The position numbers and the translations under genes are program-made. Of a stretch of DNA of 64,000 bases, positions 1 to 64,000 are shown one piece after another. Each line of letters opens with the position of its first letter. Position 1 is the stretch's first letter. A model generated the notes under the pieces. It did no database searches and was not told the origin of the DNA. It saw nothing but the letters and a program-made list of their open reading frames with translations. This stretch comes from Eledone cirrhosa (taxonomy: Eukaryota): assembly GCA_964016885.1 (NCBI GenBank), contig OZ024741.1, forward strand, positions 76,198,001 to 76,262,000, in the 5' to 3' direction.

Positions 1-3000
1 CATACATATGCATACAGGTACACATACATATATGCACGTATCAGTTTAGCGGCGCTAACGTCGCTTTGTTCGTTTGTAAACAAACTGAACAGCCTGAATT
101 TATGCATACGGTGTTAAGGCAACCACGTCACCTTTTTGTTCAACACTGACACAGGAACGATGTACTAGTTTCAAGCTTGTTAGCTATCATCAGCACCGTT
201 TACCCATCTGCCAGATAGTTGAACGTTCGAAAGTATATACTTTCCTTATGAAAATTAACGGCTGAGCAGCCTAATTTGCATATTGAGTGAGTTAAATCGG
301 TCAGGCATACCGAAAACGATAAATTGAAACAAAATGAAAACGAAATTTCATTTCTCACTCTTAGTATGGCACTTACTTAAATGTAAGTATGCATGTATAC
401 GTACATACATATATGTATACAGACGTACAGTAGCATGCACATATATATATATATATACATATATACATACATATGCATACAGGTACACATACATATATGC
501 ACGTATCAGTTTAGCGGCGCTAACGTCGCTTTGTTCGTTTGTAAACAAACTGAACAGCCTGAATTTATGCCATACGGTGTTAAGGCAACCACGTCACCTT
601 TTTGTTCAACACTGACACAGGAACGATGTACTAGTTTCAAGCTTGTTAGCTATCATCAGCACCGTTTACCCATCTGCCAGATAGTTGAACGTTCGAAAGT
701 ATATACTTTCCTTATGAAAATTAACGGCTGAGCAGCCTAATTTGCATATTGAGTGAGTTAAATCGGTCAGGCATACCGAAAACGATAAATTGAAACAAAA
801 TGAAAACGAAATTTCATTCTCACTCTTAGTATGGCACTTACTTAAATGTAAGTATGCATGTATACGTACATACATATATGTATACAGACGTACAGTAGCA
901 TGCACATATATATATATATATACATATATACATACATATGCATACAGGTACACATACATATATGCACGTATCAGTTTAGCGGCGCTAACGTCGCTTTGTT
1001 CGTTTGTAAACAAACTGAACAGCCTGAATTTATGCCATACGGTGTTAAGGCAACCACGTCACCTTTTTGTTCAACACTGACACAGGAACGATGTACTAGT
1101 TTCAAGCTTGTTAGCTATCATCAGCACCGTTTACCCATCTGCCAGATAGTTGAACGTTCGAAAGTATATACTTTCCTTATGAAAATTAACGGCTGAGCAG
1201 CCTAATTTGCATATTGAGTGAGTTAAATCGGTCAGGCATACCGAAAACGATAAATTGAAACAAAATGAAAACGAAATTTCATTTCTCACTCTTAGTATGG
1301 CACTTACTTAAATGTAAGTATGCATGTATACGTACATACATATATGTATACAGACGTACAGTAGCATGCACATATATATATATATATACATATATACATA
1401 CATATGCATACAGGTACACATACATATATGCACGTATCAGTTTAGCGGCGCTAACGTCGCTTTGTTCGTTTGTAAACAAACTGAACAGCCTGAATTTATG
1501 CCATACGGTGTTAAGGCAACCACGTCACCTTTTTGTTCAACACTGACACAGGAACGATGTACTAGTTTCAAGCTTGTTAGCTATCATCAGCACCGTTTAC
1601 CCATCTGCCAGATAGTTGAACGTTCGAAAGTATATACTTTCCTTATGAAAATTAACGGCTGAGCAGCCTAATTTGCATATTGAGTGAGTTAAATCGGTCA
1701 GGCATACCGAAACGATAAATTGAAACAAAATGAAAACGAAATTTCATTTCTCACTCTTAGTATGGCACTTACTTAAATGTAAGTATGCATGTATACGTAC
1801 ATACATATATGTATACAGACGTACAGTAGCATGCACATATATATATATATATACATATATACATACATATGCATACAGGTACACATACATATATGCACGT
1901 ATCAGTTTAGCGGCGCTAACGTCGCTTTGTTCGTTTGTAAACAAACTGAACAGCCTGATTTATGCCATACGGTGTTAAGGCAACCACGTCACCTTTTTGT
2001 TCAACACTGACACAGGAACGATGTACTAGTTTCAAGCTTGTTAGCTATCATCAGCACCGTTTACCATCTGCCAGATAGTTGAACGTTCGAAAGTATATAC
2101 TTTCCTTATGAAAATTAACGGCTGAGCAGCCTAATTTGCATATTGAGTGAGTTAAATCGGTCAGGCATACCGAAAACGATAAATTGAAACAAAATGAAAA
2201 CGAAATTTCATTTCTCACTCTTAGTATGGCACTTACTTAAATGTAAGTATGCATGTATACGTACATACATATATGTATACAGACGTACAGTAGCATGCAC
2301 ATATATATATATATATACATATATACATACATATGCATACAGGTACACATACATATATGCACGTATCAGTTTAGCGGCGCTAACGTCGCTTTGTTCGTTT
2401 GTAAACAAACTGAACAGCCTGAATTTATGCCATACGGTGTTAAGGCAACCACGTCACCTTTTTGTTCAACACTGACACAGGAACGATGTACTAGTTTCAA
2501 GCTTGTTAGCTATCATCAGCACCGTTTACCCATCTGCCAGATAGTTGAACGTTCGAAAGTATATACTTTCCTTATGAAAATTAACGGCTGAGCAGCCTAA
2601 TTTGCATATTGAGTGAGTTAAATCGGTCAGGCATACCGAAAACGATAAATTGAAACAAAATGAAAACGAAATTTCATTTCTCACTCTTAGTATGGCACTT
2701 ACTTAAATGTAAGTATGCATGTATACGTACATACATATATGTATACAGACGTACAGTAGCATGCACATATATATATATATATACATATATACATACATAT
2801 GCATACAGGTACACATACATATATGCACGTATCAGTTTAGCGGCGCTAACGTCGCTTTGTTCGTTTGTAAACAAACTGAACAGCCTGAATTTATGCCATA
2901 CGGTGTTAAGGCAACCACGTCACCTTTTTGTTCAACACTGACACAGGAACGATGTACTAGTTTCAAGCTTGTTAGCTATCATCAGCACCGTTTACCCATC

Positions 3001-3685
3001 TGCCAGATAGTTGAACGTTCGAAGTATATACTTTCCTTATGAAAATTAACGGCTGAGCAGCCTAATTTGCATATTGAGTGAGTTAAATCGGTCAGGCATA
3101 CCGAAAACGATAAATTGAAACAAATGAAAACGAAATTTCATTTCTCACTCTTAGTATGGCACTTACTTAAATGTAAGTATGCATGTATACGTACATACAT
3201 ATATGTATACAGACGTACAGTAGCATGCACATATATATATATATATACATATATACATACATATGCATACAGGTACACATACATATATGCACGTATCAGT
3301 TTAGCGGCGCTAACGTCGCTTTGTTCGTTTGTAAACAAACTGAACAGCCTGAATTTATGCCATACGGTGTTAAGGCAACCACGTCACCTTTTTGTTCAAC
3401 ACTGACACAGGAACGATGTACTAGTTTCAAGCTTGTTAGCTATCATCAGCACCGTTTACCCATCTGCCAGATAGTTGAACGTTCGAAAGTATATACTTTC
3501 CTTATGAAAATTAACGGCTGAGCAGCCTAATTTGCATATTGAGTGAGTTAAATCGGTCAGCATACCGAAACGATAAATTGAAACAAAATGAAAACGAAAT
3601 TTCATTTCTCACTCTTAGTATGGCACTTACTTAAATGTAAGTATGCATGTATACGTACATACATATATGTATACAGACGTACAGT
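1..3685 (-). repeat. 466-bp tandem array (about 8 units, open at window start); one hammerhead motif per unit on the minus strand
   Basis: Near-identical units recur every 464-466 bp (AACGATGTACTAG at 156, 622, 1087, 1553, 2017, 2482, 2948, 3412). Confidence 0.97.
156..200 (-). ncRNA. Minimal type I hammerhead ribozyme motif (identical core copies at 622-666, 1087-1131, 1553-1597, 2017-2061, 2482-2526, 2948-2992, 3412-3456)
   Basis: Minus strand reads AACGGTG-CTGATGA-T-AGCT-AACA-AGCT-T-GAAAC-TA-GTA/CATCGTT: conserved cores, 7-bp stem I, 4-bp stem II, palindromic minimal stem III (ACTAGT), GUA cleavage triplet. Confidence 0.85.
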
Positions 3686-5779
3686 GTTGAACAAAAAGGT
3701 GACGTGGTTGCCTTAACACCGTATGGCATAAATTCAGGCTGTTCAGTTTGTTTACAAACGAACAAAGCGACGTTAGCGCCGCTAAACTGATACGTGCATA
3801 TATGTATGTGTACCTGTATGCATATGTATGTATATATGTATATATATATATATATGTGCATGCTACTGTACGTCTGTATACATATATGTATGTACGTATA
3901 CATGCATACTTACATTTAAGTAAGTGCCATACTAAGAGTGAGAAATGAAATTTCGTTTTCATTTTGTTTCAATTTATCGTTTTTCGGTATGCCTGACCGA
4001 TTTAACTCACTCAATATGCAAATTAGGCTGCTCAGCCGTTAATTTTCATAAGGAAAGTATATACTTTCGAACGTTCAACTATCTGGCAGATGGGTAAACG
4101 GTGCTGATGATAGCTAACAAGCTTGAAACTAGTACATCGTTCCTGTGTCAGTGTTGAACAAAAAGGTGACGTGGTTGCCTTAACACCGTATGGCATAAAT
4201 TCAGGCTGTTCAGTTTGTTTACAAACGAACAAAGCGACGTTAGCGCCGCTAAACTGATACGTGCATATATGTATGTGTACCTGTATGCATATGTATGTAT
4301 ATATGTATATATATATATATATGTGCATGCTACTGTACGTCTGTATACATATATGTATGTACGTATACATGCATACTTACATTTAAGTAAGTGCCATACT
4401 AAGAGTGAGAAATGAAATTTCGTTTTCATTTTGTTTCAATTTATCGTTTTCGGTATGCCTGACCGATTTAACTCACTCAATATGCAAATTAGGCTGCTCA
4501 GCCGTTAATTTTCATAAGGAAAGTATATACTTTCGAACGTTCAACTATCTGGCAGATGGGTAAACGGTGCTGATGATAGCTAACAAGCTTGAAACTAGTA
4601 CATCGTTCCTGTGTCAGTGTTGAACAAAAAGGTGACGTGGTTGCCTTAACACCGTATGGCATAAATTCAGGCTGTTCAGTTTGTTTACAAACGAACAAAG
4701 CGACGTTAGCGCCGCTAAACTGATACGTGCATATATGTATGTGTACCTGTATGCATATGTATGTATATATGTATATATATATATATATGTGCATGCTACT
4801 GTTACGTCTGTATACATATATGTATGTACGTTATACATGCATACTTACATTTAAGTAAGTGCCATACTAAGAGTGAGAAATGAAATTTCGTTTTCATTTT
4901 GTTTCAATTTATCGTTTTCGGTATGCCTGACCGATTTAACTCACTCAATATGCAAATTAGGCTGCTCAGCCGTTAATTTTCATAAGGAAAGTATATACTT
5001 TCGAACGTTCAACTATCTGGCAGATGGGTAAACGGTGCTGATGATAGCTAACAAGCTTGAAACTAGTACATCGTTCCTGTGTCAGTGTTGAACAAAAAGG
5101 TGACGTGGTTGCCTTAACACCGTATGGCATAAATTCAGGCTGTTCAGTTTGTTTACAAACGAACAAAGCGACGTTAGCGCCGCTAAACTGATACGTGCAT
5201 ATATGTATGTGTACCTGTATGCATATGTATGTATATATGTATATATATATATATATGTGCATGCTACTGTACGTCTGTATACATATATGTATGTACGTAT
5301 ACATGCATACTTACATTTAAGTAAGTGCCATACTAGAGTGAGAAATGAAATTTCGTTTTCATTTTGTTTCAATTTATCGTTTTCGGTATGCCTGACCGAT
5401 TTAACTCACTCAATATGCAAATTAGGCTGCTCAGCCGTTAATTTTCATAAGGAAAGTATATACTTTCGAACGTTCAACTATCTGGCAGATGGGTAAACGG
5501 TGCTGATGATAGCTAACAAGCTTGAAACTAGTACATCGTTCCTGTGTCAGTGTTGAACAAAAAGGTGACGTGGTTGCCTTAACACCGTATGGCATAAATT
5601 CAGGCTGTTCAGTTTGTTTACAAACGAACAAAGCGACGTTAGCGCCGCTAAACTGATACGTGCATATATGTATGTGTACCTGTATGCATATGTATGTATA
5701 TATGTATATATATATATATATGTGCATGCTACTGTACGTCTGTATACATATATGTATGTACGTATACATGCATACTTAC
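3682..5779 (+). repeat. Inverted continuation of the 466-bp array (about 4.5 units); hammerhead on plus strand
   Basis: Reverse complement of the same unit, joined through shared CAGT at 3682-3685; runs out into (TA)n at ~5780. Confidence 0.97.
4097..4141 (+). ncRNA. Minimal type I hammerhead ribozyme motif (copies at 4563-4607, 5031-5075, 5496-5540)
   Basis: CTGATGA 4104-4110, GAAAC 4125-4129, GTA 4132-4134; stem I AACGGTG/CATCGTT extended by GGG/CCT, CTGGCA/TGTCAG and GTTCAAC/GTTGAAC. Confidence 0.85.
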
Positions 5780-11760
<5,981 letters not shown>

Positions 11761-13480: not shown

Positions 13481-14321
<841 letters not shown>

Positions 14322-15057: not shown

Positions 15058-16965
<1,908 letters not shown>

Positions 16966-29830: not shown

Positions 29831-32445
29831 GTAGGAAGTGAGGGTCGCATGGTAAATAACTGAGAGCGATACAATAGAATTAGAATACCGCATGGAAAAT
29901 ATCCAAGTTAATACTACATCAGTAAAATTAACAATAATAATGTCATGAAAACTACTAAGAAAAATCCTCGAAAATTTATCGCTAATACAGCAGGGAAAAT
30001 TTATCGCTAATACAGCAGGGAAAATTTATCGCTAATACAGCAGGGAACATCATTAATCATTAATATTAACAACAATATGTAGGCTAAAATACCTTCGTAG
30101 ATTAGTAAGGATGGATGGCTGGAAAATTGGAATCAACTCTAGTGATACATTTTAGCAGAGAAGAATGGGAAAGTGTCTTATCTCTTCAATATTTTCAGAT
30201 TGAATGAATTAGGTTAAAGACAGGGTAGTAAACCTTAAAGAGATGCATAGAGAGGGGGGGGTGGGGTAGGAAGTGAGGGTCGCATGGTAAATAACTGAGA
30301 GAGATACAATAGAATTAGAATACCGCATGGTAAATATCCAAGTTAATACTACATCAGTAAAATTAACAATAATAACGTCATGAAAACTACTAAGAAAAAT
30401 CCTCGAAAATTTATCGCTAATACAGCAGGGATAATTTATCGCTAATACAGCAGGGAGCATCATTAATCATTAATATTAACAACAATATGTAGGCTATGGT
30501 AAATAACTGAGAGAGATACAATAGAATTAGAATAGCGCATGGAAAATAAAATATCCAAGTTAATACTACATCAGTAAAATTAACAATAATAACGTCATGA
30601 AAACTACTAAGAAAAATCCTCGAAAATTTATCGCTAATACAGCAGGGAAAATTTATCGCTAATACAGCAGGGAACATCATTAATCATTAATATTAACAAC
30701 AATATGTAGGCTAAAATACCTTCGTAGATTAGTAAGGATGGATGGCTGGAAAATTGGAATCAACTCTAGTGATACATTTTAGCAGAGAAGAATGGGAAAG
30801 TGTCTTATCTCTTCAATATTTTCAGATTGAATGAATTAGGTTAAAGACAGGGTAGTAAACCTTAAAGAGATGCATAGAGAGGGGGGGGGGGGTAGGAAGT
30901 GAGGGTCGCATGGTAAATAACTGAGAGAGATACAATAGAATTAGAATACCGCATGGAAAATATCCAAGTTAATACTACATCAGTAAAATTAACAATAATA
31001 ACGTCATGAAAACTACTAAGAAAAATCCTCGAAAATTTATCGCTAATACAGCAGGGAACATCATTAATCATTAATATTAACAACAATATGTAGGCTAAAA
31101 TACCTTCGTAGATTAGTAAGGATGGATGGCTGGAAAATTGGAATCAACTCGTAATACATTTTAGCAGAGAAGAATGGGAAAGTGTCTTATCTCTTCAATA
31201 TTTTCAGATTGAATGAATTAGGTTAAAGACAGGGTTGTAAACCTTAAAGAGATGCATAGAGGGGGGGGGGGGTAGGAAGTGAGGGTCGCATGGTAAATAA
31301 CTGAGAGAGATACAATAGAATTAGAATACCGCATGGTAAATATCCAAGTTAATACTACATCAGTAAAATTAACAATAATAATGTCATGAAAACTACTAAG
31401 AAAAATCCTCGAAAATTTATCGCTTATACAGCAGGGATAATTTATCGCTAATACAGCAGGGAACATCATTAATCATTAATATTAACAACAATATGTAGGC
31501 TAAAATACCTTCGTAGATTAGTAAGGATGGATGGCTGGAAAATTGGAATTAACTCTAGTGATACATTTTAGCAGAGAAGAATTGGAAAGTGTCTTATCTC
31601 TTCAATATTTTCAGATTGAATGAATTAGGTTAAAGACAGGGTAGTAAACCTTAAAGAGATGCATAGAGAGGGGGGGGGGGGTAGGAAGTGAGGGTCGCAT
31701 GGTAAATAACTGAGAGAGATACAATAGAATTAGAATACCGCATGGTAAATATCCAAGTTAATACTACATCAGTAAAATTAACAATAATAACGTCATGAAA
31801 ACTACTAAGAAAAATCCTCGAAAATTTATCGCTAATACAGCAGGGATAATTTATCGCTAATACAGCAGGGAACATCATTAATCATTAATATTAACAACAA
31901 TATGTAGGCTATGGTAAATAACTGAGAGAGATACAATAGAATTAGAATACCGCATGGAAAATATCCAAGTTAATACTACATCAGTAAAATTAACAATAAT
32001 AACGTCATGAAAACTACTAAGAAAAATCCTCGAAAATTTATCGCTAATACAGCAGGGAAAATTTATCGCTAATACAGCAGGGAACATCATTAATCATTAA
32101 TATTAACAACAATATGTAGGCTAAAATACCTTCGTAGATTAGTAAGGATGGATGGCTGGAAAATTGGAATCAACTCTAGTGATACATTTTAGCAGAGAAG
32201 AATGGGAAAGTGTCTTATCTCTTCAATATTTTCAGATTGAATGAATTAGGTTAAAGACAGGGTAGTAAACCTTAAAGAGATGCATAGAGAGGGGGGGGGT
32301 AGGAAGTGAGGGTCGCATGGTAAATAACTGAGAGAGATACAATAAAATTAGAATACCGCATGGTAAATATCCAAGTTAATAAGTTAATACTACATCAGTA
32401 AAATTAACAATAATAACGTCATGAAAACTACTAAGAAAAATCCTC
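29831..32445 (-). repeat. Tandem array of ~400-bp monomers fused to the RTE 5' end
   Basis: GTAGGAAGTGAGGGTCGC recurs at 29831, 30266, 30892, 31273, 31681, 32299; internal 23-bp subrepeat in 1-3 copies; same monomer precedes the intact copy at 45270-45845. Confidence 0.92.
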
Positions 32446-37622: not shown

Positions 37623-38620
37623 CTTAAAACAACTTATATATAAGACAATTTATATATAAGATAGATAGATAGATGTGTGTTTATGGATCAGTTGAAATTA
37701 TAAAAATTGAATAAGCTTTCATGCACTTATAATTATATATAAGGAATAGTTATCCATATAAATTATTCAATTATTTGATGAGGATATATGCATATATATA
37801 CACATACATACATCCACACAAGGACACAGACACATACATATGCACATATGGACACAGTACATACCTCCAATTATAAGAAAAGTACATGTAGTAATTCAGT
37901 ATTGTTTGTCTAGCTTTCTATATGATTGTTTGTATTTATACTTTTAAAAGGAAAATAATCACATGTACATACATGTAACACGGTGTGTGTATATATGCAT
38001 ATTTACATATATGTAATATATATTACATTATGGACATACACACAATGATATGTTATACCTGTTCTAAACCTGGATACGTACAGCTAAATATATATTTTTT
38101 CTCTGTATGGGTTAGATGTGCTGTCACATTATGTGCTCATACAATCCTTTTTTGCCTTGGTTCTCTATAGTTAGATGCCCTATGAATGTTTGTGTGCATG
38201 TGTGTGTATATACATATCTATATTCATAAAGCTGACGGCCGTATGTATGTAACAAACTTTTCGCCAAACGGCTGGATCAAACGGCACCAAATTTGCACCT
38301 TTTTCCAAGTAAGAAAGTGAGGGTATTTTTGTCTACTAAATTTCATTAAAAGATTAAAGATATTTTATTGTTTATTTAAATATTCACTTCTTTAAAATTT
38401 TCAAATGTCAACACTTCTGGCTAGCGATCACTTATATGACTTTCCTCCCTCTTTCTTAGTCTGTCTTTTTAGATAGATACATAGTTATAACATCACACCC
38501 TTATATGTCTCTGTATGCCTGGCTGTCTGCATTATGAAAACCATTCTGTATATTGACTTCGCTATCTGTGTGTGAGTGTATATATGTATATATATATAGT
38601 GTGTGTGTATATATATATAT

Positions 38621-39261: not shown

Positions 39262-39426
39262 ATATTTTCAATAGTAATACTGTACTATATCTTTTCAACA
39301 GTAATACTGTACTACATATTTTCAACAGTAACAGTAATACTATACTATATATTTTCAACAGTAATTCTATACTATATATTTTCAACAGTAATTCTATACT
39401 GTACTATATATTTTCAACAGTAATAC
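39262..39426. repeat. 26-bp minisatellite, left part
   Basis: ATATTTTCAACAGTAATACTATACT units. Confidence 0.9.
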
Positions 39427-41943
39427 AGATATTTTACTCAACGCCTACGACAGTAAAGAAGAACAGATAGAGACATTTAACGTAGAAGAGAACTGGGAGT
39501 TCCTAAAAAATAATTTACTAGAGGCGACGGATGAGGTCTGTGGCTGGAGTAAGACCTCAAGCAGAAGGAGAGTGACTTGGTGGTGGAACAATAAGGTAGA
39601 TGAAGCAGTTAAGGCCAAGAGACAGGCATGAAAAGAATGGAAGAACGGGGGGAGCAGGGTACATTACATAGAGACCAAGAGGGAAGCTAGGCGACAAGTA
39701 TACTTAGCTAGGAGGGAAGCAGAGGATAGAAAATTCAAGCATGTTTTACAACGTGGGGACCAGAAACAGGAGGTATTCAAGATTGCGAGGCAGTGTGTCA
39801 GAGATAGTTGTGATGTCATTGGAGAGAAGTGTATCCGGAATGATAAAGGTGAGCTTGCCCTCACAAGTGCTGAGAAGAAAGGTGCATGGAAGAGTCATTA
39901 TGATAGATTACTAAATGAGGAGAATGCATGGGAAGAAGAGACCCTACCCCAAGTAGACCCTATAGAGGGACCAGCAGTACAAGTCAGCAGCAGCGTAGTA
40001 AGTAAGGCAATCAAAGATATGAAGATGGGGAAGGCAACCGGTCCATCGGGTATAGCTGCCGAGATGCTGAAGGCATCTGGGTCTGTAGGTCACACTATAA
40101 CCACACGTATCGTTAACCAGGTAATACTAGAGGGGGCCATACGAAAAGATTGGTGCAGTAGCATCATTGTCAACTGCTACAAAGGTAAAGGCGATGCACT
40201 AGATAGAGGAAACTATAGAGGTATAAAGTTGATGGACCAGGTCATGAAAGTAACAGAAAGAGTTATAGCACAGCTGATTAGGGACCGGGTGAAAATAGAC
40301 GAGATGCAATTTGGGTTTGTACCAGGAAGAGGCACCACTGATGCCCTCTTCCTTGTGAGGCAATTACAGGAAAAGTACCTAGCTAAAAGTAAGCCACTCT
40401 ACTTGGCATTTGTCGACCTTGAGAAAGCCTTTGACAGAGTTCTACGTGTTGTAATCTGGTGGGCTCTTAGAAAACTAGGAGTAGATGAATGGCTTGTGAA
40501 AGCGGTACAAGCCATGTATAGGGGAGCAGTCAGCAAAGTTAGGATTAGCAATGAGTATAGCGAGGAATTTAGCGTACAGGTTGGGGTCCACCAGGGCTCT
40601 GTTCTTAGCCCTCTCCTGTTCATCATAGTCCTGCAGGCAATAACGGAGGAGTTTAAGACCGGATGCCCATGGGAACTCCTGTATGCTGATGACCTTGCAC
40701 TCATAGCTGAATCTATGGTAGAACTAGAGAATAAATTCCAAACCTGGAAGCAGGGACTAGAAAGAAAGGGTCTCAAAGTCAACCTGACAAAGACTAAGGT
40801 CCTTGTAAGTAGACGAGAAAACAGAACCTAGATCCCCTCAGGGAAATGGCCTTGCTCAGTATGTAGGAAAGGTGTAGGTAGGAACTCCATTCTCTGCCCC
40901 AAATGCAAACAATGGGTACACAAGAGATGTAGCGGGATCTCAGGAAGCTTAATTAAGAATGTAGGATTCACATGCAGCAGCTGTGCTGAAACAGCAAGCA
41001 GCAAACAGCCACAGGAAACAAGTACCACCAATCTCTGGAAGGGCCCTGTAGAAACAGTAGACAGCTTCTGCTACCTAGGTGACCGAATTAGCAACGGAGG
41101 TGGGTGTTCAGAAAGTACAATAACTAGGGTAAGAACGGGATGGAAGAAGTTTAGGGAACTACTACCACTGCTAGCTGCAAAAGGCTTCTCCCTCAGAATG
41201 AAAGGCAGACTGTATGATGCGTGTATCCGAACAGCGATGTTGCATGGTAGTGAGACCTGGGTGCTGAAGGTGGAAGACTTACGTAGATTAGAGAGAAACG
41301 AAGCCTGCATGCTCCGATGGATGTGTAACAGTAATATACGTGAACGACAAAGCATAAATGAATTGAGAGAGAGACTGAGCATAAGAGGTATCAAATGCTG
41401 CGTGCAGGAGAGGCGGTTGCGCTGGTATGGACATGTGATGCGTATGAAGGATGACAGCTGCATAAAAAGGTGCAGAGCACTAGAAGTTGATGGAAACCGC
41501 GGAGTGGGGAGACCCAAGATGACCTGGGATGAGGTGATAAAAGCCGACCATACCCAATTACACCTCTCAAAGACAATAACACACGACCGTGACTTCTGGC
41601 GTCACGCAGTAATACAGAGTACCCGACCTCCCATGGGTACATGCTGAAGTATATAAACAATATGCCCCCCCCCCCCCCCCACCGCAAGGTGGTCGTGGAG
41701 GTGCCACGGCAAAAAAGCACCCAGCCCACACTGTAAAGTGGACATGTAGGCGCCACGAAAAAGCACCCAGCACTCACTGTAAATGAGGTTGGTGTTAGGA
41801 AGGGCATCCAGCTGTAGAAATCAAGCCAGATCAGTTCCTGTATGAGCAAGGCATGGTCAGCCGACCAGACACTGCACACAACAGGACAACCCGTCTAACC
41901 CATGCTAGCGTGGAAGAACGGACGTAAAACGGTGATGATGATG
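39427..41943 (+). mobile_element. 5'-truncated RTE LINE (subfamily A) with nonsense mutations, inserted in a minisatellite
   Basis: Near-identical to 46990-49510; TGG>TGA at ~39629 and CAG>TAG at 40829; (GAT)n tail. Confidence 0.95.
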
Positions 41944-42802
41944 AATACTATACTATATATTTTCAACAGTAATACTGTACTATATATTTTCAACAGTAAT
42001 ACTATACTATATATTTTCAACTGTAATACTATATTTTCAACAGTGATACCCTACTATACTATATATTTTCAACAGTAATTCTATACTATATATTTTCAAC
42101 AGTAATACTGTACTATATATTTTCAACAGTAATACTATACTATATATTTTCAACATTAATACTGTACTATATATTTTCAACAGTAATACTATACTATATA
42201 TTTTCAACAGTGATACTATACTATACATTTTCAACAGTAATACTATACAATATATTTTCAACAGTAATACTGTACTATATATTTTCAACAGTAATACTAT
42301 ATATTTTCAACTGTAATACTATATTATATTTTCAACAGTGATACCCTACTATACTATATATTTTCAACAGTAATAATATACTATATATTTTCAACAGTAA
42401 TACTATACTATACTATATATTTTCAACAGTAATACTATACAATATATTTTCAACAGTAATACTGTACTATATATTTTCAACTGTAATACTATACTTTATT
42501 TTCAACAGTGATACCCTACTATACTATATATTTTCAACAGTAATACTATACTATATATTTTCAACAGTAATACTATACTATATATTTCCAACAGTAATAC
42601 TGTACTTTATATTTTCAACAGTAATACTATACTATATATTTTCAACAGTAATACTATATATTTTCAGCAGTAATACTATACTATATATTTTCAACAGTAA
42701 TACTATACTATATATTTTCAACAGTAATACTATACTATACTATATGTTTTCAACAGTCATACTATAATATACTATATATTTTAAACAGTAATACTATACT
42801 AC
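41944..42802. repeat. 26-bp minisatellite, right part (~32 units)
   Basis: Same unit as 39262-39426. Confidence 0.93.
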
Positions 42803-45265: not shown

Positions 45266-48200
45266 CATTATGATTATGATGTTCCCTGCTGTATTAGCGT
45301 TAAATTTTCCCTGCTGTATTAGCGATAAATTTTCGAGGGTTTCTCTTAGTAGTTTTTTTCATGACGTTATTATTGTTAATTTTACTGATGTAGTATTAAC
45401 TTATTAACTTGGATATTTACCATGCGGTATTCTAATCCTATTGTATCTCTCTCAGTTATTTACCATGCGACCCTCAGTTCCTACCCCCCCCCCTCTCTAT
45501 GCACTTCTTTAAGGCTTACTACCCTGTCTTTAACCTAATTCATTCAATCTGAAAATATTGAAGAGATAAGACACTTTCCCATTCTTCTCTGCTAAAATGT
45601 ATCACTAGAGCTGATTCCAATTTTCCCAGCCAGCCATCCATCTAATCTACGAAGGTATTTTAGCCTACATATTGTCGTTAATATTATGATGTTCCCTGCT
45701 GTATTAGCGTTAAATTTTCCCTGCTGTATTAGCGATAAATTTTCGAGGGTTTCTCTTAGTAGTTTTTTTCATGACGTTATTATTGTTAATTTTACTGATG
45801 TAGTATTAACTTGGATATTTACCATGCGACCCTCAGTTCCTACCTCACAATTTCCCTCCCCCCCACCCCCACACACCACCATAGTCTATTCGACCAATCA
45901 AACCTAGCATGCCATTTCCACTGCTGCTGCTGCTACTACCTGCCTAACTAACTCTCTCCTCCTCTGGCGCATCCCAACACACCCTGCCATTACCCCACCA
46001 CCACTGTCCTTCTAGCCCTCAATTTTCCCACCGTTATGGATGGATGAGCTGGGAATACACGAGCAACTCTGAATCAATAGATGAAATATGAATCTGCGAG
46101 CTACCAAGCACCCACGTGAAGCGCCAACCCAGAGACCCTCCCCTACGAGTGTCGACAAATGCCCAAAACTCCGAGTTGGTACCATCAATGTAGGCTCAAT
46201 GAAAGGAAGAGCAGGAGAAATCGTAGAAATGCTAGAGCGAAAGGAAGTTGATGTATGCTGTGTGCAAGAGACTAGATGGAGAGGAGGGTCTGCTAGAGTC
46301 CTTGTAGGAAAAAGCCAGTGCTACAAATTTTTCTGGGTGGGAAATGACGATGGGATGGGTGGTGTAGGTATACTATTAGCTGACAAGTGGGTAGATAAAG
46401 TAATCTCAGTGTACAGGGTAAATGCAAGAATCATTAAACTCAGACTAGTCCTGAATAAGACAATTACCACAATAATATCAGCTTACGCACCCCAATCGGG
46501 GCTGCCAGACGAACTTAAGGATAGGTTTTACGAGTCCCTAATACACACTACTGCTCTAACAGACGACAAGGACTTCCTAATCATTGCAGGAGATTTTAAC
46601 GGACACGTAGGTAAACACTGCGACGGCTTCAATAGAGTACATGGAGGCCATGGAGTTGGCACAAGGAATGAGGAAGGATTCAGACTTCTAGAATTCTGCG
46701 ACGCCAATGACATGTCGATATGTAACACAAACTTTAAAAAACCCGACAACCACCTGATCACCTATAGATCAGGGGAGCACTCTAGTCAGTTAGATTTTAT
46801 CCTCATCAGAGGACGTGACAGATGGACGGTCGTAAACACAAAAGCCTTCCCTAGTGAGGAATGTACATCCCAACATAGCTTAGTTGTCAGCGACCTCACG
46901 GTCAGAACTAGACGAGCCCTGAAACAGAGGCCAACCTGGAGAAGAAAGATCTGGAAGCTGAAAGTCCCCTCAACCAGTAACAGATTTAAAGATATTTTAC
47001 TCAACGCCTACGACAGTAAAGAAGAACAGATAGAGACATTTAACGTAGAAGAGAACTGGGAGTTCCTAAAAAATAACTTACTAGAGGCGACGGATGAGGT
47101 TTGTGGCTGGAGTAAGACCTCAAGCAGGAGGAGAGTGACTTGGTGGTGGAACAATAAGGTAGATGAAGCAGTCAAGGCCAAGAGACAGGCATGGAAAGAA
47201 TGGAAGAACGGGGGGAGCAGGGTACATTACATAGAGACCAAGAGGGAAGCTAGGCGACAAGTATACTTAGCTAGGAGGGAAGCAGAGGATAGAAAATTCA
47301 AGCATGTTTTACAACGTGAGGACCAGAAACAGGAGGTATTCAAGATTGCGAGGCAGTGTGTCAGAGATAGTTGTGATGTCATTGGAGAGAAGTGTATCCG
47401 GAATGATAAAGGTGAGCTTGCCCTCACAAGTGCTGAGAAGAAAGATGCATGGAAGAGTCATTATGATAGATTACTAAATGAGGAGAATGCATGGGAAGAA
47501 GAGACCCTACCCCACGTAGACCCTATAGAGGGACCAGCAGTACAAGTCAGCGGCAGCGTAGTAAGTAAGGCAATCAGAGATATGAAGATAGGGAAGGCAA
47601 CCGGTCCATCGGGTATAGCTGCCGAGATGCTGAAGGCATCTGGGTCTGTAGGTCACACTATAACCACACGTATCGTTAACCAGGTAATACTAGAGGGGGC
47701 CATACCAAAAGATTGGTGCAGTAGCATCATTGTCAACTGCTACAAAGGTAAAGGCGATGCACTAGATAGAGGAAACTATAGAGGTATAAAGTTGATGGAC
47801 CAGGTCATGAAAGTAACAGAAAGAGTTATAGCACAGCTGATTAGGGACCGGGTGAATATAGACGAGATGCAATTTGGGTTTGTACCAGGGAAAGGCACCA
47901 CTGATGCGCTCTTCCTTGTGAGGCAATTACAGGAAAAGTACCTAGCTAAAAGTAAGCCACTCTACTTGGCATTTGTCGACCTTGAGAAAGCCTTTGACAG
48001 AGTTCCACGTGCAGTAATCTGGTGGGCTCTTAGAAAACTAGGAGTAGATGAATGGCTTGTGAAAGCGGTACAAGCCATGTATAGGGGAGCAGTCAGCAAA
48101 GTTAGGATTGGCAATGAGTATAGCGAGGAATTTAGCGTACAGGTTGGGGTCCACCAGGGCTCTGTTCTTAGCCCTCTCCTGTTCATCATAGTCCTGCAGG

Positions 48201-49510
48201 CAATAACGGAGGAGTTTAAGACCGGATGCCCATGGGAACTCCTGTATGCTGATGACCTCGCACTCATAGCTGAATCTATGGTAGAACTAGAGAATAAATT
48301 CCAAACCTGGAAGCAGGGACTAGAGAGAAAGGGCCTCAAAGTCAACATGACAAAGACTAAGGTCCTTATAAGTAGACGAGAAAACAGAACCCAGATCCCC
48401 TCAGGGAAATGGCCTTGCTCAGTATGTAGGAAAGGTGTAGGTAGGAACTCCATTCTTTGCCCCAAATGCAAACAATGGGTACACAAGAGATGTAGCGGGA
48501 TCTCAGGAAGCTTAATTAAGAATGTAGGATTCACATGCAGCAGCTGTGCTGAAACAGCAAGCAAACAGCCACAGGAAACAAGTACCACCAATCTCTGGGA
48601 GGGCCCTGTAGAAACAGTAGACAGCTTCTGCTACCTAGGTGACCGAATTAGCAGCGGAGGTGGGTGCTCAGAAAGTACAATAACTAGGGTAAGAACGGGA
48701 TGGAAGAAGTTTAGGGAACTACTACCACTGCTAGCTGCAAAAGGCTTCTCCCTCAGAATGAAAGGCAGACTGTATGATGCGTGTATCCGAACAGCGATGT
48801 TGCATGGTAGTGAGACCTGGGCGCTGAAGGTGGAAGACTTACGTAGATTAGAGAGAAACGAAGCCTGCATGCTCCGATGGATGTGTAACAGTAATATACG
48901 TGAACGACAAAGCATAAATGAATTGAGAGAGAGACTGAGCATAAGAGGAATCAAATGCTGCGTGCAGGAGAGGCGGTTACGCTGGTATGGACATGTGATG
49001 CGTATGAAGGATGACAGCTGCATAAAAAGGTGCAGAGCACTAGAAGTTGATGGAAACCGCGGAGTGGGGAGACCCAAGATGACTTGGGATGAGGTGACAA
49101 AAGCCGACCTTACCCAACTACACCTCTCAAAGTCAATGACACACGACCGTGACTTCTGGCGTCCCGCAGTAATACAGGGTACCCGACCTCCCATGGGTAC
49201 ATGCTGAAGCATATAAACAATATGCCCCCCCCCCACACACACACACACACCGCAAGGTGGTCGTGGAGGTGCCACGGCAAAAAAGCACCCAGCCCACACT
49301 GTAAAGTGGACGTGTAGGCGCCACGAAAAAGCACCCAGCACTCACTGTAAATGAGGTTGGTGTTAGGAAGGGCATCCAGCTGTAGAAATCAAGCCAGATC
49401 AGTTCCTGTATGAGCAAGGCATGGTCAGCCGACCAGACACTGCCCACAACAGGACAACCCGTCTAACCCATGCTAGCGTGGAAGAACGGACGTAAAACGG
49501 TGATGATGAT
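45266..49510 (+). mobile_element. Full-length, apparently intact RTE LINE with ~1.4 5' monomers, 5' UTR, ORF, 3' UTR and (GAT)n tail
   Basis: Single uninterrupted ORF; the same minisatellite flanks both ends. Confidence 0.95.
46088..49207 (+). CDS. RTE-clade LINE polyprotein (APE endonuclease + reverse transcriptase with PHD-like finger), 1039 aa
   Basis: GTINV, QETRW, SAYAPQ, GDFNGHVG, LDFIL (APE); [32 protein letters not shown] (RT). Confidence 0.96.
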   Translation: MNLRATKHPREAPTQRPSPTSVDKCPKLRVGTINVGSMKGRAGEIVEMLERKEVDVCCVQETRWRGGSARVLVGKSQCYKFFWVGNDDGMGGVGILLADKWVDKVISVYRVNARIIKLRLVLNKTITTIISAYAPQSGLPDELKDRFYESLIHTTALTDDKDFLIIAGDFNGHVGKHCDGFNRVHGGHGVGTRNEEGFRLLEFCDANDMSICNTNFKKPDNHLITYRSGEHSSQLDFILIRGRDRWTVVNTKAFPSEECTSQHSLVVSDLTVRTRRALKQRPTWRRKIWKLKVPSTSNRFKDILLNAYDSKEEQIETFNVEENWEFLKNNLLEATDEVCGWSKTSSRRRVTWWWNNKVDEAVKAKRQAWKEWKNGGSRVHYIETKREARRQVYLARREAEDRKFKHVLQREDQKQEVFKIARQCVRDSCDVIGEKCIRNDKGELALTSAEKKDAWKSHYDRLLNEENAWEEETLPHVDPIEGPAVQVSGSVVSKAIRDMKIGKATGPSGIAAEMLKASGSVGHTITTRIVNQVILEGAIPKDWCSSIIVNCYKGKGDALDRGNYRGIKLMDQVMKVTERVIAQLIRDRVNIDEMQFGFVPGKGTTDALFLVRQLQEKYLAKSKPLYLAFVDLEKAFDRVPRAVIWWALRKLGVDEWLVKAVQAMYRGAVSKVRIGNEYSEEFSVQVGVHQGSVLSPLLFIIVLQAITEEFKTGCPWELLYADDLALIAESMVELENKFQTWKQGLERKGLKVNMTKTKVLISRRENRTQIPSGKWPCSVCRKGVGRNSILCPKCKQWVHKRCSGISGSLIKNVGFTCSSCAETASKQPQETSTTNLWEGPVETVDSFCYLGDRISSGGGCSESTITRVRTGWKKFRELLPLLAAKGFSLRMKGRLYDACIRTAMLHGSETWALKVEDLRRLERNEACMLRWMCNSNIRERQSINELRERLSIRGIKCCVQERRLRWYGHVMRMKDDSCIKRCRALEVDGNRGVGRPKMTWDEVTKADLTQLHLSKSMTHDRDFWRPAVIQGTRPPMGTC

Positions 49511-53193: not shown

Positions 53194-55286
<2,093 letters not shown>

Positions 55287-56046
55287 TAAATTGAAACAAA
55301 ATGAAAACGAAATTTCATTTCTCACTCTTAGTATGGCACTTACTTAAATGTAAGTATGCATGTATACGTACATACATATATGTATACAGACGTATGGCAT
55401 AAATTCAGGCTGTTCAGTTTGTTTACAAACGAACAAAGCGACGTTAGCGCCGCTAAACTGATACGTGCATATATGTATGTGTACCTGTATGCATATGTAT
55501 GTATATATGTATATATATATATATATGTGCATGCTACTGTACGTCTGTATACATATATGTATGTACGTATACATGCATACTTACATTTAAGTAAGTGCCA
55601 TACTAAGAGTGAGAAATGAAATTTCGTTTTCATTTTGTTTCAATTTATCGTTTTCGGTATGCCTGACCGATTTAACTCACTCAATATGCAAATTAGGCTG
55701 CTCAGCCGTTAATTTTCATAAGGAAAGTATATACTTTCGAACGTTCAACTATCTGGCAGATGGGTAAACGGTGCTGATGATAGCTAACAAGCTTGAAACT
55801 AGTACATCGTTCCTGTGTCAGTGTTGAACAAAAAGGTGACGTGGTTGCCTTAACACCGTATGGCATAAATTCAGGCTGTTCAGTTTGTTTACAAACGAAC
55901 AAAGCGACGTTAGCGCCGCTAAACTGATACGTGCATATATGTATGTGTACCTGTATGCATATGTATGTATATATGTATATATATATATATATGTGCATGC
56001 TACTGTACGTCTGTATACATATATGTATGTACGTATACATGCATAC
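55287..56046 (+). repeat. 1.4 units of the 466-bp repeat with a 5' inverted segment
   Basis: 55287-55394 is inverted relative to 55391-56046; junction shares CGTA. Confidence 0.95.
55767..55811 (+). ncRNA. Minimal type I hammerhead ribozyme motif
   Basis: Identical to 4097-4141. Confidence 0.85.
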
Positions 56047-56062
56047 CTATATATATATAAAT

Positions 56063-59143: not shown

Positions 59144-60042
59144 AGACCAAAGTACTAGTTTGTAGGAAAGAAAACAAGGCGGCGGTCCCTTCTGGGAAAT
59201 GGTCGTGCTCGGTGTGTAGGAAAGGCGTAGGTAGAAACTCCATTTTATGTCCTAAATGCAAAGTATGGGTGCATAAAAGATGTAGTGGGATCACAGGTAA
59301 GCTAACTAAGAACATAGATTTTACATGTGGCCGGTGCTCTGGTGCAATAAGTAGCAGCAAGTGCCCACAAAATACTACCTCTTTCAATTGCGCAGAGGCT
59401 TCTATAGAAATAGTGGACAGCTTCCGTTACCTGGGCGATAAAATCAGCAGTGGGGGAGGGTGCTCTGAAAGTACTGTAGCTAGAGTCAGAACTGGTTGGA
59501 AAAAGTTCAGAGAGCTTATACCACTATTAGCTGCTAAAGGGTTCTCACTAAAAATGAAAGGCAGGTTGTACGACGCCTGCATACGAACAACAATGCTGCA
59601 TGGCAGTGAGACCTGGGCATTGTGTGCAGAGGATATACGCAGACTAGAGAGGAACGAAGCTTGCATGCTCCGCTGGATGTGTAACAGTAATATACGTGAA
59701 CGGCAAAGCATAAACGAACTAAGGAAAAAATTAGAGATAAGAGGGATCAGATGTTGTTTACTCGAGAGAAGGCTACGTTGGTATGGACACGTGATGCGCA
59801 TGAAAGTCGATAGCTGTATAACAAAGTGCAGGGCAATAAAGATAGACGGTAGTCACGGAATAGGCAGACCTAGAAAAACCTGGGACGAGCTGATAAACTC
59901 CGACATCACACACTTACACCTCTCCAAGACAATGTCACTGGACCGAGACCTTTGGCGGTACTCAGTAACAGAGAAGACCCGCCTTACCTAAATATATAGT
60001 AAAACCTACTCCAGCCAGTAGGCATCTCTAACAAAATACAAC
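59144..60042 (+). mobile_element. RTE subfamily B fragment truncated at both ends
   Basis: ORF to 59991 matches the C-terminal third of RTE; 3' UTR breaks off at ~60042. Confidence 0.9.
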
Positions 60043-60269
60043 TGTGTCTGCTTGCTTTGGCTAACCCGCCTGCACCTTGCTTTCGGCCTCTTGCTACTGC
60101 ACGTGAATTCTCCTACCTTCCTTCGATGCACCTCTGTTTGACCATTGGACTCCTGCCCGGGTGTGAACCGGTTTGTGATTACCCCACCGCTCAACTGTGT
60201 GAATGCACACCCGTGACTTTCGAGTGAACTTTTGAGACTGCCCAACCTGGGACGCCTCCATTGCCTTGC

Positions 60270-60430
60270 AATGGTCAAGTGATACTGGTGACTGTGACAC
60301 TTAGTGCCTTCGTGGGCCCCTGATATTTTCAAGAAATATATTCTAAAAAAATGGTCAAGTGATACAGATAACTGTGACACTTAGTGCCTTCGTGGGCCCC
60401 TGATATATTCAAGAGATATATTCTAAAAAA
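60270..60430. repeat. 80-bp tandem duplication
   Basis: ATGGTCAAGTGATAC at 60271 and 60351. Confidence 0.9.
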
Positions 60431-60434
60431 TATA

Positions 60435-60603
60435 TATCTTATTTCAAATTACTTTATTTTATTTTATTTTATTTAATTTCATTTTATTTCATTTTATTTA
60501 ATTTTATTTATTTATTTATTTAATTTCATTTATTTATTTATCTACTTATTTATTTATTTATTTAATTTTAATTTTAATTTTAATTTTATTTATTTATTTA
60601 ATT

Positions 60604-60635
<32 letters not shown>

Positions 60636-61205
60636 TTACATTTAATTATATCTTATATTATATTATTTTACTTTAGTCTATTTTATTTTATTTTATTTTA
60701 GTTTACCTTATTTTATCTTATTTTATGATTATATTATATTATGTTCTATTTTATATAATTTTAATTTTAATTTTATATTATTTTATTTCATTCCTTACCC
60801 TGTATCACTATTATCTGTATATTTTATATTTTATATTTTATATGTAAGTTTGTTATATTTTTTTATATTTTTATATTTTTTTATATTTTCTTATATATAT
60901 TATAAGTCTGTTTTTCACCTATTTTTTACCTACTCTTACCTAATCCTATCTATCTTATCTACTCTTGTCTGTTCTCTTATCCATGTGTATGCTTGTATGT
61001 AACTATATGTTGACAGCACCCCGCCCAACTGTGACTGATAGCACCCCTTATTTTTCATTGTTTATTTTATTATTTTTATTTTTATTTTTATTTTTATTTT
61101 TATTTTTATTTTTATTTTTATTTTTATTTTTATTTTTATTTTTATTTTTATTTTTATTTTTATTTTTATTTTTATTTTTATTTTTATTCTTATTTTTACT
61201 TTTAC
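60435..61205. repeat. (TTATT)n / (TTTTTA)n low-complexity tracts with a unique spacer
   Basis: Directly visible. Confidence 0.85.
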
Positions 61206-61287
61206 TTCCTTAATATCCTTTATCTTCTATTATTTTTCATTCTTCAATGTCTTGGATTTGTTATTGCTTGTATGGTATGTAATTAAC

Positions 61288-61345
61288 CTTTATGCTCTGA
61301 TGAGTCCGACTTATAGTGCGGATGAAACAATGTTAGCAAGTAAAG
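61288..61345 (+). ncRNA. Type I hammerhead ribozyme motif (single copy, different family)
   Basis: CTTTA-TGCT-CTGATGA-GTCCG..CGGAT-GAAAC-AAT-GTT/AGCA-AG-TAAAG; stems I and II pair; GUU triplet at 61332-61334. Confidence 0.75.
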
Positions 61346-61467
61346 ATATGCATATGCTATAGGCGTTCTTTGTTATTTATTATATATATTTATATATATA
61401 TATATTTATATTTATATATATATATTTATATTTATATATATATTTATTTATGAAATATATATATATT

Positions 61468-61498
<31 letters not shown>

Positions 61499-61535
61499 AT
61501 ATTTATATATATATATTTATATTTATATATATATT

Positions 61536-61568
<33 letters not shown>

Positions 61569-61583
61569 TTATATATTTATATT

Positions 61584-61622
<39 letters not shown>

Positions 61623-61623
61623 T

Positions 61624-61788
<165 letters not shown>

Positions 61789-61921
61789 ATATATTTTTAT
61801 ATATATATTTTTATATATATATATATATATTTTTATATATATATTTTTATATATATATATATATATTTTTATATATATATTTTTATATATATATATATAT
61901 ATATATTTTTATATATATATA

Positions 61922-61960
<39 letters not shown>

Positions 61961-61966
<6 letters not shown>

Positions 61967-62988
61967 ATAAATGCTCTGAAATAGCGATATATATGTGAAT
62001 ATAGACATAGAATATTCGAAAATATTCTGTATGTTTATAATAAACATTTTGAAGACCTAATCGCTATAGAATAGAATACGTCACGTATTACAATTAGATT
62101 CTCGATAAAAGCAAGGGAAGTAATCTACGCGTTTCATTCTTGTTAGAAATCATCAGGACTACATATCCAGTGCTTTTATCGAGAATGACACAGCTAGAGA
62201 CTTATAGAATACTTAGCTGTGTACAGGAACTGGTTTGAAAGAGCGGTTGCCGGTCCGGCAGAAATTAGAAATTGGAATAAATGCTCTGAAATAGCGATAT
62301 ATATGTGAATATAGACATAGAATATTCGAAAATATTCTGTATGTTTATAATAAACATTTTGAAGACCTAATCGCTATAGAATAGAATACGTCACGTATTA
62401 CAATTAGATTCTCGATAAAAGCAAGGGAAGTAATCTACGCGTTTCATTCTTGTTAGAAATCATCAGGACTACATATCCAGTGCTTTTATCGAGAATGACA
62501 CAGCTAGAGACTTATAGAATACTTAGCTGTGTACAGGAACTGGTTTGAAAGAGCGGTTGCCGGTCCGGCAGAAATTAGAAATTGGAATAAATGCTCTGAA
62601 ATAGCGATATATATGTGAATATAGACATAGAATATTCGAAAATATTCTGTATGTTTATAATAAACATTTTGAAGACCTAATCGCTATAGAATAGAATACG
62701 TCACGTATTACAATTAGATTCTCGATAAAAGCAAGGGAAGTAATCTACGCGTTTCATTCTTGTTAGAAATCATCAGGACTACATATCCAGTGCTTTTATC
62801 GAGAATGACACAGCTAGAGACTTATAGAATACTTAGCTGTGTACAGGAACTGGTTTGAAAGAGCGGTTGCCGGTCCGGCAGAAATTAGAAATTGGAATAA
62901 ATGCTCTGAAATAGCGATATATATGTGAATATAGACATAGAATATTCGAAAATATTCTGTATGTTTATAATAAACATACAGAATATTT
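61961..62988 (-). repeat. 310-bp tandem array (3.3 identical units) between (TA)n tracts; one hammerhead per unit
   Basis: ATTGGAATAA at 61961, 62271, 62581, 62891. Confidence 0.97.
62120..62162 (-). ncRNA. Minimal type I hammerhead ribozyme motif (copies at 62430-62472, 62740-62782)
   Basis: Minus strand GTAGTC-CTGATGA-T-TTCT-AACA-AGAA-T-GAAAC-GC-GTA/GATTAC; enclosed by a 16-bp stem 62098-62113/62171-62186. Confidence 0.87.
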
Positions 62989-63028
62989 ATATATATATAT
63001 TTATATATATATATTTATATATATATAT

Positions 63029-63060
<32 letters not shown>

Positions 63061-63061
63061 T

Positions 63062-63118
<57 letters not shown>

Positions 63119-63121
63119 ATT

Positions 63122-63225
<104 letters not shown>

Positions 63226-63283
63226 TATATATATATATTTATATATATATATATTTATATATATATATTTATATATATATATT

Positions 63284-63316
<33 letters not shown>

Positions 63317-63429
63317 ATTTATATATATATATATTTATATATATATTTATATATATATATATTTATATATATATTTATATATATATATATTTATATATAT
63401 ATTTATATATATATATATATATATATTTA

Positions 63430-64000
63430 TATCATCATCATCATCAACGTTTAACGTCCGTGTTCCACGCTTGCATGGGTTTAGACGGGGGTAGTCCCAC
63501 TTGAGGCAAGAGTGTTTGTCTTGCTCGCATAGGACTGTCTGGCAGGTTTTCTACAGTTGGATGCCCTTCCTAACGCCAACCACATTTACAGTGTGGAACT
63601 GGGAGGTTTTTACCGTGTTGCCTACACGGCCACATTACAGCGTGGACTGTGTGTTTTTTTGTCGTGACACCTACACGATCTCATTTGTTTCGGCCTGGAT
63701 GGTGTGGCACCAACATAACTTTACATAGAACGGGGTGGTGTGGATGGGGTGGGGGTGGTGGGACGGGGGAGTATTTTGTTAGAGATGCCTACTGGCTGTA
63801 GTAGGTTTTACTATGTATTTAGGTAAGGCGGGTCTTCTCTGTTACTGAGTACCGCCAAAGGTCTCGGTCCAGTGACATTGTCTTGGAGAGGTGTAAGTGT
63901 GTGAGGTCGGAGTTTATCAGCTCGTTCCATGTTTTTCTAGGTCTGCCTATTCCGTGGCTACCGTCTATCTTTATTGCCCTGCACTTTGTTATACAGCTAT
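63430..64000 (-). mobile_element. RTE subfamily B 3' end (continues beyond window)
   Basis: (ATC)n tail, 3' UTR and ORF C-terminus matching 59820-60040. Confidence 0.92.

Follow-up and report, generated by a model that had tools for sequence, protein, structure and literature searches.

A 310-base hammerhead retrozyme array in Eledone cirrhosa and the Penelope-type insertion ends of its family

Non-LTR retrozymes of animals have been described from coral, mussel and axolotl as tandem units of 150-450 bp, each with one type I hammerhead, that contain no open reading frame (ORF), have a GC content below 50%, form a self-paired monomer, and occur as several families per genome and in thousands of copies (PMC7229834). 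Expression and cleavage were shown for these elements, their circles were seen by northern blot in all three animals, and closure of the circle by a host ligase, shown for other retrozymes, is reported there as well (PMC7229834). The canonical animal type I hammerhead combines a 6-bp helix I with an internal loop and an intact core (PMC4209133; RF02275), a helix II of four positions with a 6-nt loop, and a short palindromic helix III (PMC4209133); a dimer mechanism and the looped helix I of such motifs are supported by PMC6155905. That Penelope-like elements (PLEs) mobilise animal retrozymes has been argued from co-occurrence, shared ribozymes and pLTR homology, and the use of a circle as template is a hypothetical step in these accounts (PMC7229834; 10.64898/2026.07.22.740005). 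Vertebrate retrozymes, for instance, co-occur with Neptune/Poseidon-type PLEs and are proposed to be mobilised in trans, a link based on that co-occurrence and on pLTR homology (10.64898/2026.07.22.740005); the family presented here shares its genome with PLEs too, whereas the link is provided by the insertion scar. Insertions of endonuclease-bearing PLEs consist of partial tandems with an inverted, 5'-truncated copy at the 5' end and a 30-40-bp tail between the reverse transcriptase (RT) starts, lie in AT-rich or microsatellite targets, and carry a type I hammerhead (10.1101/2021.04.23.441226; PMC11167929). The inverted copy together with the one-sided tail is the published PLE signature (10.1101/2021.04.23.441226), and in the anole PLE the tail lies between two internal RT start sites, both strands of the AT-rich target being cut and extended (PMC11167929).

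This study concerns a 64,000-nt stretch of Eledone cirrhosa DNA (contig OZ024741.1, positions 76,198,001 to 76,262,000), hereafter the window, near the end of which a 310-nt unit forms an array. The main arm (61961..62977, minus strand) holds 3.3 head-to-tail copies with a period of 310 and a 100% match, and runs from unit phase 79 to phase 165, phase 1 being the base directly after the GUA cleavage triplet. A 19-nt stub of an inverted second arm (62970..62988, plus strand, phases 88-106) overlaps the 5' end of the main arm by 8 nt. The outermost 35 nt of the main arm (61961..61995, minus strand, phases 131-165) open with an internal (UA)4 tract, fall between the two fixed 3' ends of the family, and correspond to a Penelope-type tail. 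Sequence and repeat scan place the array between a (TA)n tract on the left (61381..61960) and a (TA)n-rich tract on the right (62989..63432); a target-site duplication, longer than 4 bp in retrozymes that have one, is not delimitable between two (TA)n flanks. On the other side of the left tract, a lone hammerhead (61290-61342, plus strand), in which helix II is longer, 10.1/11.1 is G·U and the site is GUU, ends a dispersed family of at least 1 kb, with homology over about 60100-61390 to the loci L136 and L137; the copies there run about 110 nt further, where in the window the (TA)n tract with the 310-nt array comes next.

Type I hammerheads occur on the minus strand at 62736..62788, 62426..62478 and 62116..62168, their C3 being 62776, 62466 and 62156, respectively; the cuts are predicted to fall at 62746/62745, 62436/62435 and 62126/62125. 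The predicted cleavage-to-cleavage monomers (62436..62745, minus strand, and 62126-62435) are 310 nt long, and the circular fold of such a monomer is predicted at -67.8 kcal/mol (z=-4.8 vs. 100 dinucleotide shuffles). Every unit also contains a 16-bp inverted repeat (62408..62496, minus strand, arms 62408-62423 and 62481-62496) that, in the predicted fold, lengthens helix I and juxtaposes both ends of the monomer. The GC content of the unit is 34% (0.342) and its longest stop-to-stop frame 59 aa. With tandem units of 310 bp, a hammerhead at three of three junctions, arrays across the genome, and a non-coding, self-paired monomer below 50% GC, the family agrees with every feature of animal non-LTR retrozymes that can be checked in sequence, and a circular RNA is predicted for it. 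The array is no autonomous PLE, as its unit has no RT/GIY-YIG ORF; a tblastn search of the 64-kb window with five PLE proteins gave no match.

Within the 3.0-Gb assembly, the exact 32-nt motif has 4,217 matches, compared with none for a reversed control, and chance is thereby excluded as its origin. When N7 and the loop are left free, 14,189 copies with U at position 10.1 are found, while 4,042 of the 18,231 copies (22%) carry another base there, A in all 100 among the matches listed; reversed controls give 0 for both. The total of 18,231 units amounts to about 5.7 Mb, or ~0.2% of the assembly, and judged by sequence the 310-nt element is a young non-LTR retrozyme family of ~18,000 units. Among four sequencing runs of unknown kind, three give one 340-nt contig that equals the unit plus 30 nt, as expected equally from a tandem array or a circle; the fourth has the loop variant AACA-to-AACG at ~35% of depth. 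A sequencing-run search listed no RNA data set with the unit, which has no bearing on whether it is expressed. The 46 distinct motifs collected fall into the 310-nt family, a clade with units of ~420-500 bp, and older dispersed relatives. Four ~466-bp units compared are 65-97% alike, and an older, degraded relative of the 310-nt unit resembles it by 67-71% over about 370-400 nt. A 311-nt subfamily (L091, L093, L054-L067) has A-U at 10.1/11.1 and a 1-nt insertion two bases past the cleavage site, which shifts helix I and is fixed in all units of those arrays; it resembles, and might be, a scar of a ligation junction or of reverse transcription. Another abundant family (L131, L134, L138, L140, L042, L175-L184) has a shorter U·U hammerhead, in which helix II is 74% like that of the 310-nt unit over about 80 nt. 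Its insertions, too, have two arms and two fixed ends in (TA)n, and UUC replaces GUC at the cleavage triplet in many copies.

At three of three unit junctions the motif reads, on the minus strand, GUAGUC-CUGAUGA-U-UUCU-AACA-AGAA-U-GAAAC-GC-GUA/GAUUAC (slash, predicted cut), and the core, i.e., C3-U4-G5-A6-N7-G8-A9, G12-A13-A14, A15.1-U16.1 and H17, is complete in all three window copies. A U·U mismatch at position 7 of stem I leaves 6 bp and an internal loop, and helix III is a single A-U pair closing the palindrome CGCG. Positions 10.1-11.1, normally paired in type I hammerheads (usually G-C), are U·U in the window copies, which is a documented active exception (PMC3088659; axolotl HHR_Amex2, PMC7229834), U10.1·U11.1 having been reported as an active natural variant by Perreault et al. 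2011 (PMC3088659). In axolotl, helix III of HHR_Amex1 is likewise a single pair under a palindromic tetraloop, and this motif works as a dimer, and helix II of HHR_Amex2 begins with U·U; the 310-nt motif unites the two weak features, whereas the axolotl motifs described have one each (PMC7229834). Searched against the hammerhead clan CL00010 at the Rfam gathering thresholds, the motif gave no hit, its best match being HH9 (RF02275) with 19.2 bits against a 52-bit cut-off (E=0.11). It aligns position by position with the HH9 type I consensus, including the 6-bp helix I with a UUA internal loop and the helix II of 4 bp with a 6-nt loop. The layout of the canonical animal hammerhead is thus shared, and the difference lies in a helix II that is A-U rich and opens with U·U in most copies, and in a score that stays under the Rfam threshold. 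What the units carry is a canonical type I hammerhead; its weak closing pair is already known and is common in this genome. Self-cleavage is predicted. Because helix III offers only the A-U pair closing CGCG, a double hammerhead is probably the best form for cleavage; for two isolated 53-nt motifs it is the minimum-energy dimer (-20.7 vs. -7.3 kcal/mol each). In a nearest-neighbour model of the full tandem unit, helix II reaches p=0.13-0.16 and the swapped pairing of the double hammerhead p=0.00; helix I is predicted to form locally, the core being misfolded.

To describe how the family is inserted, 22 insertions were mapped, namely, the window copy and 21 from the first places listed on one contig (C1). 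Nineteen of them consist of two tandem arms that meet 5'-to-5' in (TA)n. In 18 of these 19, one outer end lies at phase 163-167 and the other at phase 126-139, both entering TA-rich repeats (17 classified by phase, L089/L155 being read from arm maps, and the diverged L153 judged by equivalent sites). The second outer end is mostly at phase 130, where the unit reads on as CAUAUAUAU. The window insertion is the exception among the two-armed cases, with the long end at 61961 and only the 19-nt stub, which stops at phase 106, outside the usual 126-139. The remaining three insertions are one-armed, and one of them borders an assembly gap. The inner 5' phases are scattered from 13 to 278, and where the arms meet they often share a few bases or the 16-bp inverted repeat. 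The longest arm has 19 units and the longest insertion 22, while the short insertion L080 has arms of 0.7 and 1.1 units. Either arm may be the longer one (3.2 vs. 19 units in L083, 14.8 vs. 3.4 in L084), so that the second arm, often the longer, is no fold-back copy of the first cDNA. Taken together, an inverted 5' arm, a one-sided tail and an AT-rich target, with both ends in place, are found in 18 of the 22 insertions, and in its structure the family agrees with a non-autonomous element mobilised by PLEs. An array of two inverted arms in (TA)n, each with a fixed internal 3' end, departs from the retrozymes as described in PMC7229834, for which expression and cleavage are on record, the 310-nt family being known here from its sequence. 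From PLEs the family differs in having no RT/endonuclease ORF, a unit of only 310 nt, two arms that are both long multimers, and no homology to the sampled pLTRs. The 466-type families have the same two-end layout, with ends ~70 nt apart.

Sequence variants within these arrays bear on what was copied. Variants private to one sampled insertion occur on both arms in four of four two-armed cases, being present in 20/20 units of L083, 9/9 of L092, 6/6 of L093, and all but one unit of L089/L155. Other variants recur within an array: in L083 two of them return at a spacing of 7 units and 13T>C is found in one unit of each arm, and recurring variants are also seen in L084 and in the 469-bp array L096.

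Candidates for the proposed enzyme are encoded in the same genome. A search for GIY-YIG nucleases gave 150 scored matches out of 10,595 candidates, and in four of five ORFs tested Pfam places an RT and, at the C terminus, a GIY-YIG domain in one frame (RT above the curated cut-off in one of the four), the ORFs including lengths of 938 and 1,096 aa; autonomous RT+GIY-YIG PLEs are thus present. A CxxxxCxxC motif precedes the nuclease, which is read as the mark of Neptune-like PLEs following 10.1101/2021.04.23.441226. No homology was found between the 310-nt unit and 13 PLE 3' regions and pLTRs in 50 PLE-containing loci, a small sample of the 10,595 candidates. The related minimal hammerhead family, located 3' of PLE ORFs in L140, L178 and L181, was considered as a pLTR and rejected; an inverted arm of its own comes before it in L140 and L181, and it is therefore read as a nested insertion. 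Three further loci (L132, L133, L137) have a minimal hammerhead-like motif ~385-410 nt after the stop of an RT+GIY-YIG ORF; the helix II of this motif, capped by GAAA, has U·U at its base, helix III is palindromic, and the element ends in (TA)n at two positions.

It is considered probable that the array is one insertion of a 310-base retrozyme, pasted into (TA)n by a Penelope-like enzyme that copied a predicted RNA circle from both cut strands. In this scheme, read-through transcripts would cut themselves behind GUA, probably most readily as a double hammerhead in view of the short helix III, and, by analogy with other retrozymes, a host ligase would close the 310-nt monomer into a circle. A GIY-YIG nuclease would cut both strands of (TA)n, and each 3'-OH would prime reverse transcription at one of two internal sites, phase 165 or the (UA)4 tract of the RNA at phase 130-139. 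Each cDNA would then go several times round the template, the two cDNAs would join at short overlaps to give back-to-back arms, and some arrays may later enlarge or mix through unequal exchange. The insertion-wide private variants favour one circle as the template, and the recurring variants of L083, L084 and L096 imply that later exchange or a heterogeneous template plays a part. Several points weigh against this explanation: the motif scores below the HH9 cut-off, the predicted helix II is weak, some arrays are not uniform, three of the 22 insertions have a single arm, the 50 PLE-containing loci gave no pLTR similar to the unit, and the second arm of the 310-nt array in the window ends at phase 106, not 130. 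Among predicted Xenopus retrozyme dimers, moreover, only one of nine cleaved in vitro (10.64898/2026.07.22.740005). According to PMC11167929, the anole PLE needs no ribozyme cleavage and uses mainly unprocessed RNA, and its RT starts are without homology to the cut DNA, unlike the start site with target-like (UA)4 proposed here. A more far-reaching version can be put forward only tentatively, somewhat short of an even chance: each insertion would preserve, like a fossil, a single reaction, a Penelope RT-endonuclease having primed on the two cut strands of a TA repeat and travelled as many as about 20 times round one 310-nt circular RNA; the family would thus be a direct genomic record of how ribozyme-made circles enter animal genomes, and a deliberately slow, dimer-dependent hammerhead would keep the circle closed long enough for copying.

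Since priming takes place in mid-unit, multimeric arms need a template that crosses the cleavage site, which may be a circle or an uncut multimer. The same two-primer PLE insertion could therefore have copied a linear transcript running through a source array, the hammerhead being slow and circles a by-product or absent. That the core is predicted to fold weakly, with U·U and a 1-bp helix III, is in keeping with such a template, as are the axolotl motifs with helices of this kind, which cleave only 6-22% per hour as monomers (PMC7229834), the unprocessed RNA of the anole PLE (PMC11167929), the L083 variant in one unit of each arm, which suggests heterogeneity, and the existence of homogeneous source arrays, from which uniform copies could arise without a circle. 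Arms of up to 19 units and insertions of up to 22 are harder to obtain from a linear RNA, private variants fixed in nearly all units of both arms follow directly from a monomer circle, and the core and stems kept by selection across families indicate that cleavage matters at some step. A linear template is for these reasons regarded as unlikely, and copying of a circle is retained as the preferred reading.

The arms may also have grown in place, monomers or short partial tandems arriving by the PLE route and expanding later by unequal crossover, along the lines of the local satellite expansion model discussed in 10.64898/2026.07.22.740005. Post-insertion exchange is recorded in the 7-unit recurrence in L083 and the recurring variants of L084 and L096, and short insertions such as L080 do exist. 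Against this, at many dispersed young loci the usual finding is two multimeric arms of near-identical units, a tandem has no starting point in an arm shorter than about one unit, and each locus would have had to expand twice independently, which makes growth in place quite improbable as the origin of the arms.

The hammerhead of the 310-nt unit can be compared with that of a second element in the window, a two-armed array of 466-bp units (1..5781, minus arm 1-3685, plus arm 3682-5781), of which a further short two-armed copy of this type lies at 55286-56055. Its motif reads AACGGUG-CUGAUGA-U-AGCU-AACA-AGCU-U-GAAAC-UA-GUA/CAUCGUU. The preliminary description had claimed that both arrays share one hammerhead geometry with different stems, and reading of the two motifs bears this out: stems, the palindromes ACGCGU/ACUAGU, UA bulge and U·U are as claimed, except that stem I position 7 of the 310-nt unit is unpaired (U·U). 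That the units are unrelated beyond the ribozyme also holds, as blastn finds only TA-rich matches (E>=0.02). With the ribozyme removed, the local alignment of the two units has z=1.0, and 52 of 300 shuffles score equally high; in a control with two 466-type families the score is 165 vs. 32±5. A common origin beyond the ribozyme was not detected, with values of z of 0.9-1.7 for three 466-type units and an unconvincing value for a 422-nt relative (z=2.5; 5/300 shuffles). In the ~466-bp clade an octamer, ATGCAAAT, and, 42-43 nt further on, a TATA-like box stand upstream of the hammerhead, as seen at 4010-4060 (plus strand) in the window, in every 466-bp unit, and in L070, L095 and L096. Two U6 promoters read in the genome (L165, L166) have the same octamer 46-47 nt before the TATA box, which suggests an internal U6/snRNA-type promoter in this clade. 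Such a putative promoter is reminiscent of newt satellite 2. The octamer was looked for in the 310-nt unit and is absent.

It had further been proposed that an RNA structure common to several families is under selection. Twenty rows, chosen from 46 distinct 53-nt motifs in the fetched loci and representing about 4-5 lineages only, were aligned; rows that nearly repeat another or differ by a single point mutation were omitted, as were a junction copy, the 311-nt form (helix I shifted) and several singletons in a degraded state, and this choice of rows biases toward pairing. In the alignment 90.3% of cells are paired, compared with 29-52% for control structures slid along the same rows, and 89 cells are changed on both sides (shuffles 37.8±4.8, reached in 0/500). 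Two-sided changes affect seven of ten helix I pairs and four of five helix II pairs. The number of covarying pairs, 12, is matched or exceeded in 187 of 500 shuffles. The proposal accordingly stands as far as paired and two-sided changes are concerned, with the pair count, which does not beat shuffles, as a caveat; covariation across families is taken as support for a selected RNA structure. All but one of the 20 rows have a palindromic loop III, 13 lack a pair at stem I position 7, and the core is unchanged in all 20, as the search pattern demanded. The conserved geometry consists of a 3-bp distal stem, the UA bulge, a helix I of 6 bp, a 6-nt loop with the pattern U-A-A-Y-R-A, and helix III as a palindrome; because the U...A 'closing pair' of helix II is constant in the 20 rows, it reads better as part of the 6-nt loop.

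Positions 10.1/11.1 take seven states in sister families (U·U, A-U, G-C, C-G, C·A, A·A and G·A), and loop II occurs as AACA, AAUA, AACG, AAUG and AAGA. Broad patterns, not strictly symmetric to one another, found 43,945 motifs with U·U (control 11) and 15,209 with a non-U state (control 15) in the genome; 1,044 motifs have other helix III loops (control 44). A pattern for the U·U/AACA motif with a G-C or C-G first pair gave three matches in the genome and no intact new family. The lineage-specific U-U and AACA variant of the preliminary description, understood as a dedicated and required module, is the least credible reading of all, given that U·U, although the commonest state in the genome and recurrent in the 310-nt, 466-bp and minimal families and in the PLE 3' region (L132/L133/L137), is one of seven states and is replaced in 22% of 310-nt copies, that the loop varies and the layout is that of HH9, and that U·U is already published, being the best-tolerated mismatch there (PMC3088659).

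The window contains several other repeats. One LINE-type RT family is present at 11995-14343, 26862-28961 and 39632-41647 (minus strand) and at 46085-49207 and 59146-59991 (plus strand), one copy having a 1,040-aa open frame, and other LINE fragments lie at 16812-19542 and 35211-37633. A complex 384/409/212-bp repeat built on a 25-bp unit occupies 29970-32123, and 27-bp minisatellite arrays are found at 39262-39456 and 41944-42801.

The ribozyme itself is not new, and the insertion scar is the part that could matter. A literature search by title and start of abstract, with most subscription journals outside its range, returned no description of the 310-nt family or of two-armed retrozyme arrays. 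What the family offers is a PLE-specific tail combined with two multimeric inverted arms and start sites located at single-base resolution (phases 130-139 and 165), by which the question of PLE mobilisation becomes directly testable. The ~18,000 units, together with tens of thousands of other hammerheads, provide nature's own mutational scan of type I hammerheads, and a rich one. If the proposed copying of circles is true, the family would be a direct genomic record of ribozyme-made circles entering animal genomes, as well as a ready in vitro substrate.
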